Below, in pieces: positions 3,548 to 21,563 of a stretch of DNA of 22,039 bases (positions within the stretch are counted from its first letter, which is position 1; every line of letters begins with the position of its first letter). The notes beneath the pieces are model-generated. The model was not told where the DNA came from, searched no databases, and worked only from the letters and a program-made list of their open reading frames with translations. The stretch lies in the IMG/VR virus record IMGVR_UViG_2609459792_000005; one strand, given 5' to 3'. Position numbers and translations under genes: made by a program. Source of the stretch: a virus (Duplodnaviria > Heunggongvirae > Uroviricota > Caudoviricetes).

Positions 3548-6123
3548 CGTCCACCTCCGGAGAACAGGCCACCATCACGCATCTGTGTCTGAATTTCATC
3601 ACGGGCACCCTTGCGGGCCATGTCATACACCGCCTTCAGAGCAGCCGGACCTATCTGCCCGTTCGTGCCGTCGTTGTTAATCACCACATGGTTATTCTGC
3701 TCAAACGTCCCGGACGCCTGCGACCGGCTGTCTGCCATGCTGCCCGGTGTACCGACATAACCGCCGGTGGCATAGCCGCGCATCAGCCGGTAAAGATTCC
3801 CCACGCCAATCCGGCTGGTTGCCTCCTTCGTGAAGACAAACTCACCACGGTGAACAATCCCCGCTGGCTCATATTTGCCGCCGGTTCCCGTAAATCCTCC
3901 GGTTGCAAAATGGAATTTCGCCGCAGCGGCCTGAATGGCTGTACCGCCTGACGCGGATGCGCCGCCACCAACAGCCCCGCCAATGGCGCTGCCGATACTC
4001 CCGACAATCCCCACCATTGCCTGCTTAAGCAGAATTTCTGTCATCATGGACAGCACGGAACGGGTGAAGCTGCGCCAGTTCTGCTCACTGCCGGTCAGCA
4101 TCGCCGCCATATTCTGTGCAATACCATCAAAGGTCTGCGTGGCTGCACTTTTTACCTGCGACATACTGTCCGTGGCGCTCTCTTCCCACTCACTCCAGCC
4201 GGACTTCAGGCCTGCCATCCAGTTCCCGCGAAGCTGGTCTTCAGCCGCCCAGGTCTTTTTCTGCTCTGACATGACGTTATTCAGCGCCAGCGGATTATCG
4301 CCATACTGTTCCTTCAGGCGCTGTTCCGTGGCTTCCCGTTCTGCCTGCCGGTCAGTCAGCCCCCGGCTTTTCGCATCAATGGCGGCCCATTTTGCCCGTT
4401 GCTGCTGTGCGAATTTATCCGCCTGCTGCGCCAGCGCGTTCAGGCGCTCCTGATACGTAACCTTGTCGCCAAGTGCAGCCAGCTGGCGTTTGTACTCCAG
4501 CGTCTCATCTTTATGCGCCAGCAGGGATTTCTCCTGTGCAGACAGCTGGCGACGTTGCGCCGCCTCCTCCAGTACCGCGAACTGACTCTCCGCCTTCCAC
4601 AAATCCCGGCGCTGCTGGCTGATTTTCTCATTCGCTCCGGCATGCTTCTCCAGCGTCCGGAGTTCTGCCTGAAGCGTCAGCAGGGCAGCATGAGCACTGT
4701 CTTCCTGACGATCGCCCGCAGACACCTTCACGCCGGACTGTTTCGGCTTTTTCAGCGTCGCTTCATAATCCTTTTTCGCCGCCGCCATCAGCGTGTTGTA
4801 ATCCGCCTGCAGGATTTTCCCGTCTTTCAGTGCCTTGTTCAGTTCTTCCTGACGGGCGGTATATTTCTCCAGCGGCGTCTGCAGCCGTTCGTAAGCCTTC
4901 TGCGCCTCTTCGGTATATTTCAGCCGTGATGCCTCAGACTCGGCCCAGTCCTTTGCTGCCATCTCTCTGGCCTTTTCAAGATCGGCCTGCAACGTGGCGG
5001 CTGAAAGCCCAAGTTGCGCATTCGCTCTGTCCTCCCATGCTCCCCGGAGATTGGCAAGAAATGCTGAGGTTTTACCGCGCCGGTGGCTCCGGCTCTGATA
5101 CCACTGCCATTTTTTGTCCGCCTCATCAAAAGCCTTTTCTGCTTTCTCCAGCATTCCCTGGGCAGTGTCCGGGCGACCAATATCCAGCACCGAATCCCAC
5201 ATGGATTTGAATGCCCGTGCTGTCCTGTCTGCCCAGGTCTCCAGCGTGCCCATGTTCTCTTTCAGGCGGCGGGTCTGGTCATCAAACCCTTTCGTTGCGG
5301 CCTCGTTCGCCGCCTGCAATGCCCCGGCTTCATCTCCGGAACGCTGCAACTGAGCAACATACGCAATCTGCTCCGCCGTCACGTTATGGAACTGACGTGC
5401 CATCGCTGTCAGTCCCGACGTCGGGTCTGTGGTCAGCTTCCCGAAGGCTTCAGCGACCTTGTCCACCTCCACGCCGGATGCAGAGGAGAAACGCGCCACA
5501 CTCTGGCTGATCGCCTCAAACTGCTCACCACCACGCACACCGGCATTCACCAGCGCCGTCAGTGACTCGCTGGTCTGGTTAAACGTCAGCCCTGCCGCCT
5601 GCCCGGCTCTGGACAGGACCAGCATACGATCTGCCGTCAGTCCCGCCTGATTGCCGGAAAGGACCAGCGTTTTGTTGAAATCGGACAGGGTTGAGTTGCC
5701 CTGATACCAGGCATACGCCAGCGCACCGGTCGCCACCGCCAGCGAGGTGGCCCCCACCATCGGCAGGGTGATCGCACCGGCAAGCCCCCTGAACATGGGG
5801 ATCATCCCGCCGAAGGAGTCCTTAACCTGACCCCCCTGTTGCAGCAGGATCAGCCACGGGCTTTGCCCGCCTGCAAGCTGCGTGGCCACGTCGGTGAACT
5901 GTGCAGGCAGCATACGCATGGCGGCTTTATACTGCCCGACGGAAATCCCCGCTTTCTGTGCAGCCAGCGCCTGTCGGCTCAGCGACTGTTCAACGACTGC
6001 CGCTGTTTTTTTCGCATCAGTTTCCGTACCGGAAAAATGACGCCTGACTCTGGCCATCTGCTCGTCAAATCTGGCCGCATCCAGACTTAAATCAACGACC
6101 AGATCGCCTACCGGTTCAGCCAT
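3544..6123 (-). CDS. H: Tail tape measure protein H
   Basis: 859 aa ORF (lambda gpH recalled as 853 aa); long predicted coiled-coil/alpha-helical region; glycine-rich hydrophobic segment near C-terminus (GGAVGGGASASGG); immediately downstream of G/T. Confidence 0.9.
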   Translation of the reverse strand: MAEPVGDLVVDLSLDAARFDEQMARVRRHFSGTETDAKKTAAVVEQSLSRQALAAQKAGISVGQYKAAMRMLPAQFTDVATQLAGGQSPWLILLQQGGQVKDSFGGMIPMFRGLAGAITLPMVGATSLAVATGALAYAWYQGNSTLSDFNKTLVLSGNQAGLTADRMLVLSRAGQAAGLTFNQTSESLTALVNAGVRGGEQFEAISQSVARFSSASGVEVDKVAEAFGKLTTDPTSGLTAMARQFHNVTAEQIAYVAQLQRSGDEAGALQAANEAATKGFDDQTRRLKENMGTLETWADRTARAFKSMWDSVLDIGRPDTAQGMLEKAEKAFDEADKKWQWYQSRSHRRGKTSAFLANLRGAWEDRANAQLGLSAATLQADLEKAREMAAKDWAESEASRLKYTEEAQKAYERLQTPLEKYTARQEELNKALKDGKILQADYNTLMAAAKKDYEATLKKPKQSGVKVSAGDRQEDSAHAALLTLQAELRTLEKHAGANEKISQQRRDLWKAESQFAVLEEAAQRRQLSAQEKSLLAHKDETLEYKRQLAALGDKVTYQERLNALAQQADKFAQQQRAKWAAIDAKSRGLTDRQAEREATEQRLKEQYGDNPLALNNVMSEQKKTWAAEDQLRGNWMAGLKSGWSEWEESATDSMSQVKSAATQTFDGIAQNMAAMLTGSEQNWRSFTRSVLSMMTEILLKQAMVGIVGSIGSAIGGAVGGGASASGGTAIQAAAAKFHFATGGFTGTGGKYEPAGIVHRGEFVFTKEATSRIGVGNLYRLMRGYATGGYVGTPGSMADSRSQASGTFEQNNHVVINNDGTNGQIGPAALKAVYDMARKGARDEIQTQMRDGGLFSGGGR

Positions 6124-6550
6124 ACCGGACTCCTCCTGCGATCCCTTCTGATACTGTCATCAGCATTACGTCATCCTCCGTCATGTCCGCCACATCCGGG
6201 GAAGTAGGGATAACTTCATTCCCGTCCGGGCCAAAGCGGACACCTCCGGCAAGCCCTGCCGCTTTCTGCATCAGCACATCATCTTCAGGCTCTTCGTCAG
6301 CCTCACGCCGGTTCAGCAAACTGAAATCCAGCGGATGCATATCCGGATCGCTGAAAAACAGGCTGAGCACGGTGTACGTCAGCCCGGAAAAGTGCATATC
6401 CAGCAGAACATCATGAAAATAATGGGTACTGTAAAAGCGGTGCCAGTCGGCATACTCCGTGGATGACATCCCGGCAAGCATGGCACGCCAGTCGGGTCGC
6501 CCCATCTCACGCGCCAGTTTCAGGGCAAAACTCAGCTCACCGTCGAACAC
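6116..6550 (-). CDS. T: Tail assembly chaperone T-frame segment, expected to be expressed only as the G-T fusion after a -1 frameshift
   Basis: Open frame in the -1 frame relative to G, beginning inside the slippery heptamer; the track start is a GTG that is probably not an initiation codon; 435 nt as for lambda T. Confidence 0.8.
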   Translation of the reverse strand: MFDGELSFALKLAREMGRPDWRAMLAGMSSTEYADWHRFYSTHYFHDVLLDMHFSGLTYTVLSLFFSDPDMHPLDFSLLNRREADEEPEDDVLMQKAAGLAGGVRFGPDGNEVIPTSPDVADMTEDDVMLMTVSEGIAGGVRYG

Positions 6551-6954
6551 TTTCCCGCAGAAACAGGCTCTGCGGGCCCGGCGTCCTCTGTCTGTTCAGG
6601 GGCATTATTCACCACAAACTCATACATACCAGACAGCCGGTACACCACGTTTTCAGCATGAGAAATTGCCTCCGTGGGCCAGGTGGTAAGCACTTCCTGC
6701 TCAATCTGTTTAACGGCTTCATTCATGGACGGCATCTGCGTCTTCTGCGGATGGTTATGCCACAGGGACATCGCCACCAGAAACGCGCCGGTTCTGATGG
6801 CGTCTTCCACAGTAAACTTCCGGTTGCTGTCTGACTCCGCCTGTTCTGCCTGCCGTTTCATCAGGGCGAGATGCTCAATACGCTGCAGGGCTGACAGTTC
6901 AGAAAGCGTGACGGTCACACCGTTATGTTCAAATGATTCGGTTTTCAGGAACAT
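6532..6954 (-). CDS. G: Tail assembly chaperone G
   Basis: 140 aa as for lambda gpG as recalled; ends ...SAGKCSTVS with the slippery site 6 codons before the stop. Confidence 0.9.
   Translation of the reverse strand: MFLKTESFEHNGVTVTLSELSALQRIEHLALMKRQAEQAESDSNRKFTVEDAIRTGAFLVAMSLWHNHPQKTQMPSMNEAVKQIEQEVLTTWPTEAISHAENVVYRLSGMYEFVVNNAPEQTEDAGPAEPVSAGKCSTVS
6550..6556 (-). promoter_or_regulatory. Programmed -1 ribosomal frameshift slippery heptamer G GGA AAG for G-T fusion
   Basis: Minus-strand GGGAAAG (plus strand CTTTCCC at 6550-6556); GGA and AAG are in the G frame (codons 134-135); after a -1 slip the reading continues GGG AAA GTG TTC GAC ... which is the T frame. Confidence 0.85.
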
Positions 6955-6969
6955 CGCTGACTCTCCGGA

Positions 6970-7710
6970 TTAACTGGCGGTGACGTTGATTTCTGCAACC
7001 GCAGCAAACTCACCATTACCGGATACAACCGGAATGTTGACCTTGCCTGCAGCAACACCTTTCACGGTGATGGTCATACCACTGACCGACACGGTGGCTT
7101 TTGTTTTATCCGCAGACACCGCACGGAAGCTCTTGTCGGTTGCGCCCTCCGGCTGGAATGCCACGGTCAGCGTGGTGCTCTGCCCTTTCACTACGGAAGC
7201 ACTGGCGGGTGTCACCGTCATGCCGGTTGTCGCCGTCACCGTGCTGCGATCTTCTGCCATCGACGGACGTCCCACATTGGTGACTTTCACCGTGCGGGTG
7301 ATCACTTCCTTCGCCGTCACCGCCTTACCGATACTGCTGACCCAGCCGCGGAACACATCGACCGTGCCGTTCGGGAAGCGGATTTTATAGGCACGGGTAT
7401 CGCCTTCATTAAACCACGCCAGCAGCGCCTGCTGCCCCTGCTCTCCGGGCATCCACGCCAGCGTGAAGCTGGTATCTCCGGCAGATTTCTGCCCCTGCCC
7501 GGTCGCAGTCCAGTCTGCATCTTCATCATCGAGATAGCTGTCGTCATAGGACTCAGCGGTCAGTTCGCCGGGCGTCAGGTCTTTAACTTTTGCCAGACGC
7601 GACCAGTCAACGTCTGAAAGCGGATTCGCATAAGGGTCACCGCTCCCCTTATAAACCCACAGGGTGGTCCCGGCACCTTTCACCGGCATTACAGGATTTG
7701 GTACAGGCAT
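6970..7710 (-). CDS. V: Major tail tube protein V with C-terminal Ig-like domain
   Basis: Track ORF is 256 aa from an upstream start; ATG at 7710 with GAGGA RBS gives 246 aa starting [12 protein letters not shown], matching lambda gpV length as recalled; C-terminal Ig-like repeat region. Confidence 0.9.
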
Positions 7711-17093: not shown

Positions 17094-17149
17094 AGCAATT
17101 TAGATAATCGTGCAGACTACACCCCTCATATCACATGGAAGGTACTACA

Positions 17150-17560
17150 ATGGCTCAGGTTGCCATTTTTAAACAAATATTCGATAAAGTGCGAAATAAT
17201 TTAAACTATCACTGGTTTTATTCTGAACTAAAACGTCACAATGTCTCACATTACATTTACTATTTAGCCACAGAGAATATTCATCTTGTTCTTGAAAACG
17301 ATAATACGGTTTTAATAAAAGGACAGGGTAAGGTTGTAAATGTAAGATTTTCAAAAAATAAATGCCTTATAGAAGCCACCTTAAAAGGATTCAAATCAGG
17401 AGAGTTATCATTTTACGAATACAGGAAAAATCTTGCTACAGCAGGGGTTTTCAGATGGATTACAAATATCCACGAAAACAAAAGGTATTACTATACCTTT
17501 GATAATTCATTACTCTTTACTGAGAACATTCAGAACACTACACAAATATTTCCGCACTAA
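17150..17560 (+). CDS. Hypothetical protein, probably YbcV/DUF1398-family (prophage protein of unknown function)
   Basis: ORF 17135-17560 in track; second ATG at 17150 has a GGAAGG RBS 9 nt upstream and gives 136 aa starting [14 protein letters not shown]; AT-rich composition; 42-57 bp downstream of the RHH gene on the same strand; family assignment is from memory and uncertain. Confidence 0.55.
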
Positions 17561-18081: not shown

Positions 18082-18531
18082 CTAAAGCGTTCTCAGTGCT
18101 GTTTGGTCGCGGATAATTCCGTCCCGGATACCGAGAACGTTTCGTCCAGCAACTGGAGAGAGTTCGACGGTGGCATCATTGCCCATGCCGGAGGCGCTGG
18201 AGGTTTCGGCTGAGGATGGCACAGGGCATTTTCCTTTGACGAGCACCCGACCACCATTATCAAGCTTGCGCCGAAGAGCATCATTTTCAGCTTTCGCATC
18301 AGCTAACTCCTTCGTGTATTTATCATCGAGTGCATCAGCATCACGCTGGCGCTGCTGCATGTCAGTAATGGTGGCGTTCGCCTTCTCCAGTTCACTGGCC
18401 TTGTTATCGCGCTGTTCTTTGTAGGCGATTGCATTATCACGGTAATGATTAACAGCCCATGACAGGCAGACGATGATGCAGATAACCAGAGCGGAGATAA
18501 TCGCGGTTACCCTGCTCATTGTTGCCCCCAC
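18082..18531 (-). CDS. Rz: Inner-membrane spanin subunit Rz (i-spanin)
   Basis: 149 aa; N-terminal TM segment ([16 protein letters not shown]) then coiled-coil-like charged region; follows the endolysin with a 16-nt overlap; contains the embedded Rz1 frame. Confidence 0.85.
18093..18299 (-). CDS. Rz1: Outer-membrane lipoprotein spanin subunit Rz1 (o-spanin), embedded in the +1 frame of Rz
   Basis: 68 aa; signal peptide with lipobox VVGC; proline-rich mature region ([16 protein letters not shown]); wholly inside Rz. Confidence 0.8.
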
Positions 18532-19013
18532 AAACAGACCTCACGCTCAATCTCACGACGAGTCATCAGGCCTTTCCATTGCTTACCGCCAGCGTATGCC
18601 CAGCGACGTAGCTGGTCACATGCGCCCTTGATATCGCCCTGGTTTATTTTGCGAAGAAGAGTAGATGTTCTGAAATTGCCTGCGCCCACGTTATAGACGA
18701 ACGAGTAAAGAGCGCCGCGCGTTGTTTCCGGTATATCGACTTTGATGTACGGGTTAATTTGTCTGGCTACCGTGGCAAGGTCTTTATTCAGGAGGGCTTT
18801 GCATTCTGCTTCGGTATACGTTTTACCGAGCATGATGTCTTTTCCTGTATGCCCGTGACATACAGTCCATACACCAACAATATCTTTGTATGGTATGTAG
18901 CTGACACCTTCCAGACCATCGTTACCACTTGGGCCAGTGATTAACACTGATGCTATAGCAATTGCTCCGCCACCAATAGCAGCAGCAACGACTTTTCGTA
19001 ATGATGGAGGCAT
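18516..19013 (-). CDS. R: SAR (signal-anchor-release) endolysin, phage 21 R-type lysozyme
   Basis: 165 aa; Gly/Ala-rich weakly hydrophobic N-terminal SAR segment ([18 protein letters not shown]) followed by T4-lysozyme-like catalytic region ([20 protein letters not shown]); recognised as close to phage 21 R. Confidence 0.9.
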
Positions 19014-19228
19014 TATTCACCTCTCGCAGCCTTGCGCTTATCTTCTTTAATCTTGAAATAAAGGTTTGTCAGGTACGTCAGCAGGCCAAATACCAGACTA
19101 CCCAGCACACCGATTGCAGCCCACTGTGACGGAGTTACTCTATCGAGCAACTGTAAAAACCAGTAGCCAGCACTGCCTGCGGAGGTGCCGTAGGCAATGC
19201 CTGTTGAAATTTTGTCCATGGATTTCAT
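19013..19228 (-). CDS. S: Pinholin, phage 21 S-type, dual-start motif (Met1 at 19228, Met4 at 19219)
   Basis: Protein [31 protein letters not shown]... 71 aa, two TM segments, charged C-terminus; strong GGAGGTGAGG RBS immediately upstream of ATG 19228; the track ORF extends 19 codons further upstream (to 19285) with no RBS. Confidence 0.85.
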
Positions 19229-19327
19229 AGCCTCACCTCCGCACGGAACGGATGGCATAGTTATTATGTGTAGGCTTTCAGACACATCAATCAGAGCCTT
19301 AATTGATATATATGCTGGAGACGATGC

Positions 19328-19354
19328 AATATAAAAAGCTCGCCGTAGCGAGCT
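19328..19354 (-). terminator. Putative rho-independent terminator after the lipoprotein genes, upstream of S
   Basis: Perfect 7-bp stem agctcgc/gcgagct with 4-nt loop (19337-19354) followed on the minus strand by TTTTAT. Confidence 0.4.
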
Positions 19355-19479
19355 AATAAAATGTATTTCTCTGATATTATGTTTATTTGTATTAGCTCAG
19401 ACTTGACATCACAGGTTTCGTATATAGAACATCATCAAATCTGTCAGTTTGCTATGAATGAGATATAGTAATTGAAGAG

Positions 19480-19875
19480 CTAACCTCGCATGTCAAAGCC
19501 AGATTTCTGAAAATCTCTGTAGACTTCCGGATTGTTGAAGGCCGGAAATTTGGCTTTATGAGCTGCGGACTTTATCGCTTCGCAATAGGCTTTATCACCG
19601 TTACTGGTAGATATTTTTAACGCCGTGCCATCCTGAGAGAATTCCATATGCAACCTGCATTTTTTCCCTTTCCAGTTATGCGGCTCATCAAGTTTGGCAT
19701 TAATTGCAGCTCTGATTCCCCGCGCTTGCGCCCCCCATTCATCCTGATCATCCCAGCGTCCTGAACTGCAACTACCTGTAGCAGTAGTTTTGTGGCAATC
19801 TGAAGGGTGTAAAGGTGTGCATCCCGCAACAAAACCGACCCAAAAAGTCAACATAACGATTTTCTTTAATCCCAC
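19480..19875 (-). CDS. Lipoprotein with C-terminal TolA domain-III-like fold (paralog 2)
   Basis: 131 aa; GTG start with GAGGAG RBS 6 nt upstream; signal peptide plus lipobox VAGC; C-terminal region RGIRAAINAKL...WKGKKCRLHMEFSQDGTALKISTSNGDKAYCEAIKSAAHKAKFPAFNNPEVYRDFQ shares the conserved skeleton of the upstream paralog and of TolA domain III. Confidence 0.75.
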   Translation of the reverse strand: MGLKKIVMLTFWVGFVAGCTPLHPSDCHKTTATGSCSSGRWDDQDEWGAQARGIRAAINAKLDEPHNWKGKKCRLHMEFSQDGTALKISTSNGDKAYCEAIKSAAHKAKFPAFNNPEVYRDFQKSGFDMRG

Positions 19876-20025
19876 TTCTTGCTCCTCAATCCATTAAAAT
19901 CTCAGCAATAGTAGTTGTTACGTCCGCCACTGGCTCAGAGCTGACTATCCGCTAAATTTAGCTCAGTGCCGTAGCTGTGTCAGAACAAACCTAAGCCGAA
20001 ACCGTTTATTACAAAACAATAAATA

Positions 20026-20454
20026 TCAGGGTTTAAAATCCAGCACCCCATTTTGAAATACTTTATATACTTCCGGCGAAGGGGGGGCAGGTATATCAGC
20101 ATTCTTTATCGCATTCATCGCTTCACGACATAAATCGAGGTCTCCACTTTCTCTTTTAACCTCCAGTAGAAGGCCATTCGGGGCCATATGCATTCTCAGT
20201 GTACACTCTTTTCCTGAATACTTACTCGCATCCCCGAACTGTTTTTCGATGGCGCTCTTGATTTGATGGGCATACAGACGGATATCCTCACTAACATCAG
20301 AAGTACGTTCAGATGAACTCACATACTGTGTCTCTATTGCTTTATCGGAGTAATATGATGTACGGTCATGATAATTTGTCGATACAGCATCAGTGCACCC
20401 GATAATAATCCCACTAATAATCAACGTAAGAATTGATGCGCTACGAAAACCCAT
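20026..20454 (-). CDS. Lipoprotein with C-terminal TolA domain-III-like domain (paralog 1)
   Basis: 142 aa; ATG with GAGGA RBS; signal peptide plus lipobox IIGC; C-terminus YAHQIKSAIEKQFGDASKYSGKECTLRMHMAPNGLLLEVKRESGDLDLCREAMNAIKNADIPAPPSPEVYKVFQNGVLDFKP aligns closely with the recalled E. coli TolA C-terminus (YAGQIKSAIESKFYDASSYAGKTCTLRIKLAPDGMLLDIKPEGGDPALCQAALAAAKLAKIPKPPSQAVYEVFKNAPLDFKP). Confidence 0.8.
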   Translation of the reverse strand: MGFRSASILTLIISGIIIGCTDAVSTNYHDRTSYYSDKAIETQYVSSSERTSDVSEDIRLYAHQIKSAIEKQFGDASKYSGKECTLRMHMAPNGLLLEVKRESGDLDLCREAMNAIKNADIPAPPSPEVYKVFQNGVLDFKP

Positions 20455-20483
20455 TTTTCCTCACATATGTCATATAGTAAAGG

Positions 20484-20513
20484 ATTATATATACCGTTGT
20501 TTTGGACGCTCAA
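20484..20513 (-). promoter_or_regulatory. Candidate sigma70 promoter for the TolA-like lipoprotein genes
   Basis: Minus-strand TTGAGC (plus 20508-20513), 18-bp spacer, TATAAT (plus 20484-20489), about 30 nt upstream of the ATG at 20454. Confidence 0.25.
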
Positions 20514-21043
20514 ACAGCGAATCAGATCAAATAAAACGCACATTTGTTAACATTTACACAAAGTCTGCGTGGGATATTCTGAAAGAATATCCATAATGTG
20601 GAGAGAATCTATTGAAGTGCATGGTGCCGGGTGCCTCCCGGTGAACAAAATGTTCGTGATACCTGTCGGCGACAGAAAAGGTTAATGGTATCACCCCACC
20701 GCACAGGGGGATTCACCATGCAGGAGTTTTCTTAGCAAACTCACTGCGCGCCCGGCAACTCCCAACCACATAAAATGCGGAGTTTGTGGTATTTATGCAT
20801 ATAACTCGCAGGAATTATCTTAAAAAACTGATGTCGATCCGGATTAAAAAGAAGCAGGTCATCATCAGATGACTGGAAAAAAGGAAAAAAAAAATACTCA
20901 TCATACAGTTTTGATTGCAGGGATGAGCCTGCTATGCACAATATGCAGAATATAAGCAAGATAAAAATATGCAGGCATATTATTTCGGATTTTGTTATTA
21001 ACACAACCTTTTTAATAATCATTTGGCATACAATAAACCAGTC

Positions 21044-21070
21044 CAAAAAGAACCGCCTAAACAGGCGGTT
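21044..21070 (-). terminator. Putative rho-independent terminator (minus strand) in AT-rich region
   Basis: Stem aaccgcc/ggcggtt with 6-nt loop (21051-21070) followed on the minus strand by CTTTTTGG. Confidence 0.4.
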
Positions 21071-21339
21071 GGTCAATACAAAGGATGCTTCGTCTTTATT
21101 ATAGTAATCTGAGGCGTCGGGTGTCTTGTATCAGACAACATATTGTCCCGCTAAACAGCGAATTACAAACCACCCTGCAATGATCTCTCATCTCATTTTA
21201 TATGAGTTGACGACATCAGGATAACGCATCATCAGCCCCTGCCAAGAAATATCAAAACTCCCGCCAGCAATGTGTTATCACAATATTGTAAAAAAAACAC
21301 AGCACCGAAACTATAACTGGTCTCTGTTATAATTTGGAG

Positions 21340-21418
21340 CAGAAAGACCAGTTGCCCAACTAGCAGCATTCTCCCCTGCTTTCCTGACGTAAAAAAACCG
21401 CATTAAGCGGTTTTTTTA
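21340..21418 (+). ncRNA. Candidate short plus-strand transcript (about 75-80 nt) between an extended -10 promoter and the bidirectional terminator
   Basis: Extended -10 TGtTATAAT at 21325-21333 (weak -35); the terminator ends about 85 nt downstream; no ORF; inverted repeat aactggtc (21314-21321) / gaccagtt (21346-21353) brackets the -10. Confidence 0.2.
21391..21417. terminator. Bidirectional rho-independent terminator
   Basis: A7 - aaccgc - attaa - gcggtt - T7: a 6-bp stem flanked by A7 on one side and T7 on the other, so it reads as a terminator on both strands. Confidence 0.55.
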
Positions 21419-21563
21419 CGATGTCCATGTCTGCAATCCGCCTCGCGATACAGCTGTGCGAAGCATAGCAAAATTGAAGCAGTTTATACGTAAGAAATCA
21501 AGCCATTTTCTCAGCAAATGATTCACGCATGGGAATATATAGGGCATACTCAGCAACAGCTAA

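Follow-up and report, generated by a model that had tools for sequence, protein, structure and literature searches.

Group A colicins and filamentous phages of the Ff and CTXphi types enter the cell by way of the same part of the TolA protein, its domain III (TolAIII). When the filamentous-phage protein g3p is expressed by the host, it brings about superinfection immunity and colicin tolerance by occupying TolA. Llp of phage T5 and Cor of phages phi80, N15 and HK022 are small outer-membrane phage lipoproteins which exclude superinfection by inactivating the FhuA receptor. Here we describe two neighbouring genes, P1 and P2, in a 22,039-nucleotide (nt) stretch of viral DNA (IMG/VR record IMGVR_UViG_2609459792_000005), which is part of a lambdoid (Rac/mEp460-type) Escherichia coli prophage. 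Both genes encode short proteins with a lipoprotein signal peptide and a C-terminal TolAIII domain, and these proteins may serve as decoys for agents that enter through TolA. The whole of the stretch is called the window below, and coordinates are window positions unless stated otherwise.

Llp and Cor are similar to P1 and P2 in size, in envelope location and in their status as phage accessory genes. However, Llp and Cor bind a receptor, whereas P1 and P2 copy a domain of a (co)receptor and would bind the invader. No similarity to Llp or Cor was found, and scans of P1 and P2 against PHROG, Pfam, NCBIfam and PADLOC gave only families of the TolA/TonB type or nothing. The immunity caused by g3p employs the same interaction, that between the N1 domain of g3p (g3p-N1) and TolAIII, to block Tol-dependent agents, but it is a mirror image of what we consider here: there, a ligand saturates the receptor, while a spare receptor domain in P1 and P2 would soak up the ligand. 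Fusions of a signal sequence to TolAIII, reportedly constructed by Levengood-Freyermuth in 1993 and by Wan and Baneyx in 1998, likewise put free TolAIII into the periplasm. The leakiness that goes with it (PMC6195910), together with the colicin tolerance reportedly observed in 1993, is the phenotype predicted by a decoy and by an agent that weakens the Tol-Pal system. Those constructs were artificial, soluble and over-expressed, whereas P1 and P2 are predicted to be lipid-anchored, have diverged, and are presumably present at much lower levels.

The closest relative of all is E. coli TolAIII itself (residues about 334-421; PDB 1TOL, 2X9A, 3QDP/3QDR and 1S62), whose fold is common to P1 and P2 and with which P1 shares the cysteine pair, the C-terminal LDFKP edge strand and most of the first helix. 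What sets P1 and P2 apart from TolA is a predicted lipid anchor from the outer membrane, no coupling to TolQR and the proton-motive force, and a location on prophages, plasmids and islands.

TolA domain III and lipoboxes in P1 and P2

P1 (20026-20454, minus strand) is a complete open reading frame (ORF) of 142 amino acids (aa), a lipoprotein gene whose TolAIII domain is a close mimic of that of TolA. P2 (19480-19875, minus strand) is a complete ORF of 131 aa with a GTG start, and it encodes a lipoprotein with a diverged TolAIII domain. A GAGGAG Shine-Dalgarno sequence is located 6 nt upstream of this GTG, and DNA homology of P2 to its copies in other contexts begins about 35 nt upstream of it, which supports the GTG as the start. 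The Prokaryotic Genome Annotation Pipeline (PGAP) places the start of P2 at a later ATG, which would cut away the basic n-region of the signal peptide.

The last approximately 88 residues of each protein are TolAIII. The domain occupies positions 20029-20292 of the minus strand in P1 (codons 55-142, with the Cys84-Cys109 pair and the C-terminal LDFKP as in TolA) and positions 19483-19746 of the minus strand in P2 (codons 44-131, with the Cys73-Cys98 pair). The Pfam model of the TolA C-terminus, PF06519 (cut-off 25 bits), is matched by P1 with 82.6 bits (E-value 2.4e-23) and by P2 with 54.6 bits (E-value 1.3e-14), and phmmer comparison with TolAIII chains in the PDB gave E-values of 5e-28 and 5e-9, respectively. 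AlphaFold2 models of both proteins reach a predicted local distance difference test (pLDDT) score above 90 over the domains and below 50 in the tethers, and the secondary structure of the modelled domains is H-H-E-E-H-H-E, as in the alpha/beta fold of TolAIII, in which the C-terminal strand is the open edge of a three-stranded sheet. When the models were compared by Foldseek with E. coli TolAIII structures, the root-mean-square deviation was 0.6-1.6 Å for P1 (top PDB match 2x9a_B, 0.6 Å) and 1.2-1.3 Å for P2 (top PDB match 3qdp, 1.2 Å), with target-normalised template-modelling scores of 0.85-0.94. Among the viral predicted structures of BFVD, no significant match to the P2 model was found. 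The C363/C388 pair of TolA is kept as invariant columns, corresponding to C84/C109 in P1 and C73/C98 in P2.

A preliminary description of this DNA, made from the sequence by eye, had claimed that the C-terminal ~85 residues of both proteins match TolAIII and that roughly half of the P1 positions are identical to TolA. Profile searches, structure searches and the conserved cysteine pair agree with the former, and the measured ungapped identity with E. coli TolA 334-421 bears out the latter: 52 of 88 residues (59%) in P1, next to 27 of 88 (31%) in P2. The lipoprotein signal peptides with lipoboxes IIGC and VAGC that it had described are likewise present, and both ORFs are exactly at the coordinates it had given.

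In P1, the signal peptide and lipobox cover 20395-20454 on the minus strand (codons 1-20, MGFRSASILTLIISGIIIG followed by the Cys, with cleavage after IIG and Thr at position +2), and in P2 they cover 19819-19875 on the minus strand (codons 1-19, with GTG as the first codon, MGLKKIVMLTFWVGFVAG followed by the Cys, cleavage after VAG and again Thr at +2). Both proteins fit the lipoprotein rule, having a K/R-containing n-region, a hydrophobic h-region and the [LVI][ASTVI][GAS]C pattern, with its Cys as residue 19 or 20. This Cys does not vary among diverged homologues of P1 and P2, and in P1 variants of 65-91% identity it is kept despite unrelated signal-peptide DNA. The +2 residue is T, S, A or G across both families, and Asp at +2 was found neither among the homologues of P1 and P2 nor among 54 lipobox-bearing representatives of the wider family. 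Because +2 is Thr and never Asp, sorting to the outer membrane is predicted, and we infer that P1 and P2 are lipidated and located in that membrane.

Between the lipobox and the domain, P1 has a tether (20293-20394, minus strand; codons 21-54) which is rich in S, T, Y and D, disordered (pLDDT below 50) and fast-evolving. The corresponding part of P2 (19747-19818, minus strand; residues 20-43) is a conserved N-terminal segment, C-TPLHPSDCHKTTATGSCSSGRWDD and onwards, with two extra Cys residues (Cys27 and Cys36). The mature N-terminus of P2, C-TPLHPSDCHKTTATGSCSSGRWDDQDEWG, is near-invariant across genera, includes an acidic, Trp-containing motif and is modelled by AlphaFold with low confidence. 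A likeness of its SSGRWDDQDEW part to the TolB boxes of colicins was considered, but the spacing is one residue off.

P1 and P2 are not TolA proper. The inner-membrane anchor of TolA (domain I, which pairs with TolQ and TolR) is absent, the N-terminus being a lipoprotein signal peptide with cleavage at Cys20 in P1 and Cys19 in P2. Domain II is absent as well, since these are proteins of 131-142 aa in which a disordered tether of 24-34 residues stands in place of a helix of about 250 residues. With the TolA equivalog model NF007065, P1 scores 107.8 and P2 53.7 bits, both under the cut-off of 213. With TIGR02794, another TolA equivalog model (cut-off 59.45), P1 reaches 75.6 bits on the C-terminal third only and P2 stays below at 47.2, and matches of both proteins to the NCBIfam TolA models are limited to model positions 265-387. 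Neither gene lies in a tolQRA-tolB-pal cluster: they are placed in the interval between the gene at the Q position and the holin gene, and their homologues are found on plasmids and at unrelated chromosomal sites. Anchor, domain II, operon context and full-length equivalog score all speak against TolA.

These facts also bear on the existing annotation. In NZ_CP033250.1, PGAP flags P1 as a 261-bp 'tolA' pseudogene, 'incomplete, missing N-terminus' (locus L002, 20727-20987, which is window 20026-20286), and this label arises because P1 passes the TIGR02794 cut-off while covering only the C-terminus of the model. The PGAP calls on P1 (a pseudogene) and on P2 (a later ATG) thus look like artefacts of full-length TolA models applied to a short lipoprotein. 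Public annotation by PGAP and by Rapid Annotation using Subsystem Technology (RAST) already names the domain, the PGAP name being 'cell envelope integrity TolA C-terminal domain-containing protein', and therefore the identification of the domain is not new; what is new here is the architecture, the context and the proposed function. Both proteins are full-length members of PHROG 5772, a family of 'unknown function' (E-values 1e-62 to 7e-65). Full-text literature searches found no study that characterises proteins of the P1/P2 type, in agreement with the earlier remark that no phage-encoded lipoprotein mimic of TolAIII had been characterised. Two reports were considered and set aside. A ciprofloxacin transcriptome paper that seemed to show a 32-fold induction of an EDL933 prophage 'TolA' was rejected as evidence, as EDL933_2012 is annotated 'tail fiber protein' in its supplement; in the annotation of phage mEp460_ev081, the 'tail fiber protein' label is given to the holin. 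Genes K and L of CloDF13, considered as possible genes for such proteins, were dropped, because according to a paper on a Klebsiella bacteriocin the TolA gene, together with a so-called TolB-family gene, is absent from CloDF13 itself.

Genomic setting, origin and constraint

P1 and P2 are placed between the Q-position gene and the holin-endolysin-Rz/Rz1 cassette. Over the 1.4 kb spanning both genes, many E. coli chromosomes match at 100% identity and phage mEp460_ev081 at 99.9%. An essD-type holin gene (19013-19228, minus strand) was assigned from the PGAP annotation of an NZ_CP033250 stretch which is 98% identical to window 18272-21563. It is followed on the same strand by an endolysin gene whose hydrophobic N-terminal segment is as in signal-anchor-release endolysins (18516-19013), by the spanin gene Rz (18082-18531), and by an Rz1 lipoprotein gene (18093-18299; lipobox VVGC with cleavage before the Cys, Pro-rich) embedded in Rz in another reading frame. 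P2 had been placed immediately upstream of the holin, and this holds: the P2 stop is at 19480 and the holin starts at 19228, or at 19285 if an upstream GTG is used. With holin, endolysin, Rz and embedded Rz1 present, the lysis cassette therefore lacks nothing that P1 or P2 would have to supply, and a spanin role for either protein was rejected, Rz and Rz1 being already there.

The order P1-P2-holin recurs in 34 IMG/VR loci, with two unrelated types of endolysin, and in the remaining 4 IMG/VR loci that have an identical P1, the sequence is cut off ahead of P2 or the holin. A block corresponding to window 19012-20742 is shared with mEp460_ev081 and other loci, and upstream of it, at the Q-position gene, the phages differ. 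The guanine-cytosine (GC) content of the P1-P2 region is 39-46%, compared to 55-60% in the structural genes. Ahead of P1, on the minus strand, there is a sigma-70 promoter-like site (20484-20513, TTGAGC-18-TATAAT, 10 of 12 consensus positions), which was found by a consensus scan only, ends about 30 nt before the P1 ATG and falls inside the block conserved with other phages. A weaker promoter-like site (19955-19983, minus strand; 9 of 12, likewise from the consensus scan only) is located in the 150-bp spacer between P1 and P2. Between the P2 stop and the holin start there is an intrinsic terminator-like hairpin (19328-19354, minus strand), AGCUCGC-UACG-GCGAGCU followed by UUUUUAUAUU. Its folding energy is -13 kcal/mol (z-score -3.4), and 0 of 200 shuffled sequences were equally stable, which makes a predicted terminator between P2 and the holin convincing. 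Of the features by which morons are recognised, mosaic boundaries near the genes and patchy presence among related phages were both seen; judged from the sequence, a promoter-like site, a predicted terminator, low GC content and a mosaic block would make up the classic moron layout. Given the promoter-like site and a terminator before the holin, a lysogen could transcribe P1 and P2 without the lysis genes.

The preliminary description regarded the two genes as tandem paralogs, much less similar to each other than to TolA, and took this as a sign of an old duplication. The low similarity was confirmed, as P1 and P2 are only 28-29% identical; the duplication was not, and we rejected it on the grounds of the identities, the nearest-neighbour comparison and the independent contexts of the two genes. 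P1, at 59% identity to TolA, is nearer to TolA than to P2, and each of the two genes occurs alone elsewhere. When compared with 148 cluster representatives, P1 had E. coli TolAIII as its nearest neighbour outside its own family, and P2 fell into a separate group. P1 variants (65-74% identical) occur without P2 in prophages of the enterohaemorrhagic E. coli (EHEC) type, downstream of the Q antiterminator; in those with a recognised essD-type holin, it was 3.2-3.6 kb further on, with several other cargo genes in between.

P2, in turn, belongs to a family of 368 clusters (at 90% identity) across Enterobacterales, which is patchy but widespread, being present in 30 species representatives from Enterobacteriaceae, Yersiniaceae and Erwiniaceae. 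It is solitary in differing chromosomal sites of Enterobacter, Serratia, Citrobacter and Klebsiella, and it is also found at the edge of a prophage remnant adjoining umuDC, yedK and btuE. A copy of about 88% identity resides on the pO157-type plasmid NZ_CP038429.1 of E. coli O157:H7 (locus L004, 4815-5246), flanked by the leading-region genes psiB, psiA and hok and by toxB, and copies of about this identity were counted at 536 plasmid places in complete E. coli genomes. Homology between the contexts of P2 stops at the ORF plus about 35 nt. The closer relation of P1 to TolA than to P2, the occurrence of each gene alone and this ORF-limited homology argue that the tandem is better read as two independently acquired cargo genes set side by side.

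A count over 5426 complete E. coli genomes gave 898 with P1, 1269 with P2 and about 780 with both in tandem. P1 was found in only 1 of the 50,697 phage genomes deposited, while 1300 plasmid records contain a relative of it. A family profile search of 1.84 billion cluster representatives returned 584 proteins at an E-value of 1e-3 or better; among the best 148 of these, which we examined, 77 are 100-170 aa long, and at least 54 of the 77 have a lipobox. Other short TolAIII representatives carry ordinary Sec signal peptides. A homologue search that used an alignment brought in nothing further. About 370 plasmids, mostly mobilizable Klebsiella ColRNAI plasmids of 10-12 kb, pair a TolAIII lipoprotein with a secreted TonB C-terminal domain (PF03544, E-value 9e-11), the two genes overlapping by ATGA. 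On the plasmid that was examined, NZ_CP028788.2 of Klebsiella pneumoniae (locus L003, 4908-5641), this pair adjoins a bacteriocin operon of the cloacin/colicin-E3-like type. To judge by these domains, such a pair imitates both import hubs, one with each protein.

Both genes are intact and constrained. The ratio of nonsynonymous to synonymous substitution rates (dN/dS) of P2 is 0.04-0.12 at dS 0.5-1.1, in comparison with its homologues on a pO157 plasmid and in Enterobacter, Serratia, Citrobacter and Klebsiella oxytoca. For P1, compared with a variant of 66% identity, it is 0.24 over the domain and 0.59 over the tether, and P1 is at least 99% identical in 782 genomes. In blastn, P1 DNA did not match chromosomal tolA; only the 898 of 5426 complete E. 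coli genomes mentioned above match at all. One site of variation is a G7 homopolymer (20081-20087; C7 on the coding strand, codons Ala123-Pro125), which is the site of frameshift alleles: P1 alleles of 157 aa (P0009-P0017) diverge exactly at this tract and lose the C-terminal strand. The frameshifted alleles are a minority in the databases and come mostly from read-level assemblies; either errors in sequencing or on/off variation by strand slippage could account for them.

Possible functions of P1 and P2

The function which we tentatively prefer, and to which we assign a slightly less than even chance, is that of a receptor decoy giving tolerance to Tol-dependent colicins and Ff-type phages. 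On this view, P1 and P2 would have entered the lambdoid prophage separately, as cargo genes ('morons'), and a tether of 34 (P1) or 24 (P2) residues would hold a free-standing TolAIII in the outer periplasm. Since TolA domains I and II are missing, there would be no coupling to TolQR and no transmission of force, but binding only. The domains would thus form a decoy at the place where invaders first emerge into the periplasm, where the open edge strand and the first helix would take hold of TolA-binding epitopes through beta-strand addition. As candidate ligands we regard g3p-N1 of Ff-type filamentous phages and the translocation domains of the Tol-dependent colicins N, A, E1 and K; once captured, they would be kept from the energised TolA in the inner membrane, and the lysogen would be tolerant. 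The promoter-like site and the terminator might allow expression in the lysogen without the lysis genes, to which read-through from a late promoter, or antiterminated read-through, would add further expression upon induction. Levengood-Freyermuth et al. reportedly observed in 1993 that periplasmic TolAIII also makes cells colicin-tolerant.

The binding face of TolAIII is known in some detail. g3p-N1, colicin N (ColN) and the N-terminus of TolB bind the same TolAIII elements by beta-strand addition (Ridley & Lakey, PMC4339652), namely the first helix (334-349) and the C-terminal strand (412-420), and a Pro substitution at D418 or K420 of TolA abolishes binding (PMC4339652). Colicin A binds the opposite edge strand (PMC4339652). 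P1 keeps 18 of the 26 ligand-binding residues of TolA (11 of 16 in the helix, 7 of 10 in the C-terminal strand), which is above its 59% average, and the kept residues include the equivalents of D418 and K420 and the terminal LDFKP. The dissociation constants for TolAIII are approximately 1 uM for ColN, 12 uM for g3p and 40 uM for TolB (PMC4339652); with ColN and g3p binding more tightly than TolB, a decoy present in moderate quantity would therefore capture invaders in preference to TolB.

Several points weigh against a decoy, most of them for P2. This protein keeps only 6 of the 26 ligand-binding residues (4 of 16 in the helix, 2 of 10 in the strand), it is under strong purifying selection rather than showing the diversifying pattern of an arms-race decoy, and it carries the conserved N-terminal Cys/Trp-acidic motif. 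A diverged binding face combined with a conserved additional N-terminal motif suggests that the ligand of P2 is probably a different, conserved one. On the sequence evidence, the decoy idea fits P1 and fits P2 less well. As to the other points, the promoter calls are consensus matches only, 11 having been found against 6.5 expected in shuffled sequences, and with a position in the late operon the main expression could occur during lytic growth. Free periplasmic TolAIII destabilises the outer membrane, which points to a possible cost or a different purpose. Neither P1 nor P2 matches any PADLOC model, and our literature searches found no functional experiment or expression data on them.

A broader form of the decoy idea is possible, although we hold it with more doubt than confidence: mobile elements of Enterobacterales might carry an unrecognised class of defence, consisting of TolAIII and TonB-tip receptor decoys which exclude by receptor mimicry, with P1 specific to E. 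coli TolA and P2 serving for another, widely shared invader epitope. This class would cover prophages, pO157-type and Klebsiella plasmids, and islands; its decoys would be lipid-anchored or secreted, and they would catch colicins, as well as filamentous or Ton-dependent phages, on their way to the energised machinery.

The divergence of P2 leads to another explanation, which we find rather doubtful, namely that P1 and P2, or at least P2, are envelope lipoproteins with a conserved partner of their own and not TolA mimics. The TolA/TonB-type fold would then be a generic module for beta-strand augmentation, the partner might be some envelope protein of the host or else an invader of another class, and the prophage location would be merely that of a mobile accessory gene. 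It agrees with this that the face of P2 is diverged (6/26) and yet the whole mature protein is constrained, including the near-invariant N-terminal segment with its two Cys residues, that the P2 family is patchy but widespread, and that short TolAIII-only lipoproteins are diverse, with the 54 or more lipobox-bearing representatives mentioned above. On the other hand, no candidate partner was identified, P1 retains the ligand face of TolA, and the pairing with a TonB domain beside a bacteriocin operon on the examined plasmid points to import hubs.

The late-operon position directly before the holin, endolysin and Rz/Rz1 genes, and the movement of P1, P2 and the holin as one mosaic block in the 34 viral loci, would suit a role in lytic growth, which is nevertheless unlikely in our opinion. 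According to it, tethered TolAIII, made mainly from the late transcript, would titrate the N-terminus of TolB (or Pal) so that TolB-Pal is not dissociated, and the outer membrane would become weaker, with more vesiculation or leakiness and help to the spanins and to virion release. In favour of such an effect, periplasmic TolAIII alone makes E. coli leaky, so that over-expressed TolAIII is used as a tool for outer-membrane leakiness (PMC6195910), and strand beta3 of TolA is the TolB site, the blocking of which gives a full tol phenotype (PMC4339652). However, the lysis cassette is already complete, the predicted terminator separates P2 from the holin, several other cargo genes lie between P1 variants and the holin, and the affinity of TolA for TolB is weak (about 40 uM). 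Moreover, P2 homologues are solitary, strongly conserved, constitutive-looking and far from lysis genes in many genera, which is hard to reconcile with a harmful, envelope-weakening activity. Such autonomous single-gene units in non-lysis contexts, P1 variants included, argue for protection of the host and against an accessory of lysis. We favour the decoy over a lysis accessory because of these solitary conserved contexts and because of the pair of TolA and TonB tips on bacteriocin plasmids.

Finally, the idea that P1 and P2 are functionless, decaying tolA fragments, as implied by the PGAP flag on P1 and compatible with the frameshift alleles at the C7 tract and with an insertion sequence (IS) of the IS5 family in the Q-position gene of the window prophage, is most improbable, given two complete ORFs, each of which has a start, a Shine-Dalgarno sequence, a signal peptide and a lipobox of its own, dN/dS well under 1 at the divergence given above, the near-identity of P1 in 782 genomes, no blastn match of P1 DNA to chromosomal tolA, and a PGAP label explained by a C-terminal-only TIGR02794 score; the two genes, which the preliminary description had allowed might turn out to be pseudogenes, are intact ORFs under purifying selection.

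Neighbouring elements and wider meaning

Further elements surround the two genes. A structured RNA element of the STnc100 family (20565-20751, minus strand; Rfam RF02076, 86.6 bits against a gathering score of 47) ends about 110 nt upstream of the P1 start, and the U-run present in the family model is missing from its terminal hairpin. The element recurs, whole or in fragments, after P1 variants and between other cargo genes in late regions of the EHEC type, at 4608-4749 of locus L057 and at 4548-4691, 6534-6564, 6780-6912 and 7037-7160 of locus L062. It may be a repeated structured element flanking morons, acting as a boundary sequence, a processing site or a leader RNA.

About 600 bp upstream of P1, at 21043-21127 on the minus strand, a promoter-like site (AAGACA-18-TATAAT, 10 of 12) is followed within about 30 nt by a strong hairpin terminator (AACCGCCTGTTTAGGCGGTT and a T-run), and together they are a candidate late promoter and terminator of the pR'/tR' kind. 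Further upstream, an IS5-family (ISKpn26-like) element begins at 21561 and takes up the rest of the window, to 22039. In comparison with the IS-free prophage in NZ_CP033250, it interrupts the Q-position DUF1133 gene, of which about 21 3' codons remain in the window. With this gene interrupted, the prophage may no longer be able to activate its late genes; P1 and P2 would then need a promoter of their own.

Between the small terminase gene and Rz, a gene for a DUF1398 protein (17135-17560, plus strand; PF07166, E-value 3e-43) lies in an island of 34-43% GC and is another likely cargo gene. The same family is also found downstream of the lysis genes in a related EHEC-type locus, L014.

In 16-23% of the complete E. 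coli genomes there are stand-alone copies of TolAIII with a predicted tether to the outer membrane, among them copies on the pO157-type plasmids of O157:H7 and other Shiga toxin-producing E. coli strains. If P1 and P2 weaken the Tol-Pal system instead of protecting the cell, this would have a bearing on vesicle production and toxin release by lysogens. If they are protective, a recurrent annotation error, the 'tolA pseudogene', would be explained, the performance of colicin- and phage-based antimicrobials against clinical strains would be affected, and P1 and P2 would represent a new way of excluding superinfection and tolerating bacteriocins, by means of a receptor decoy.

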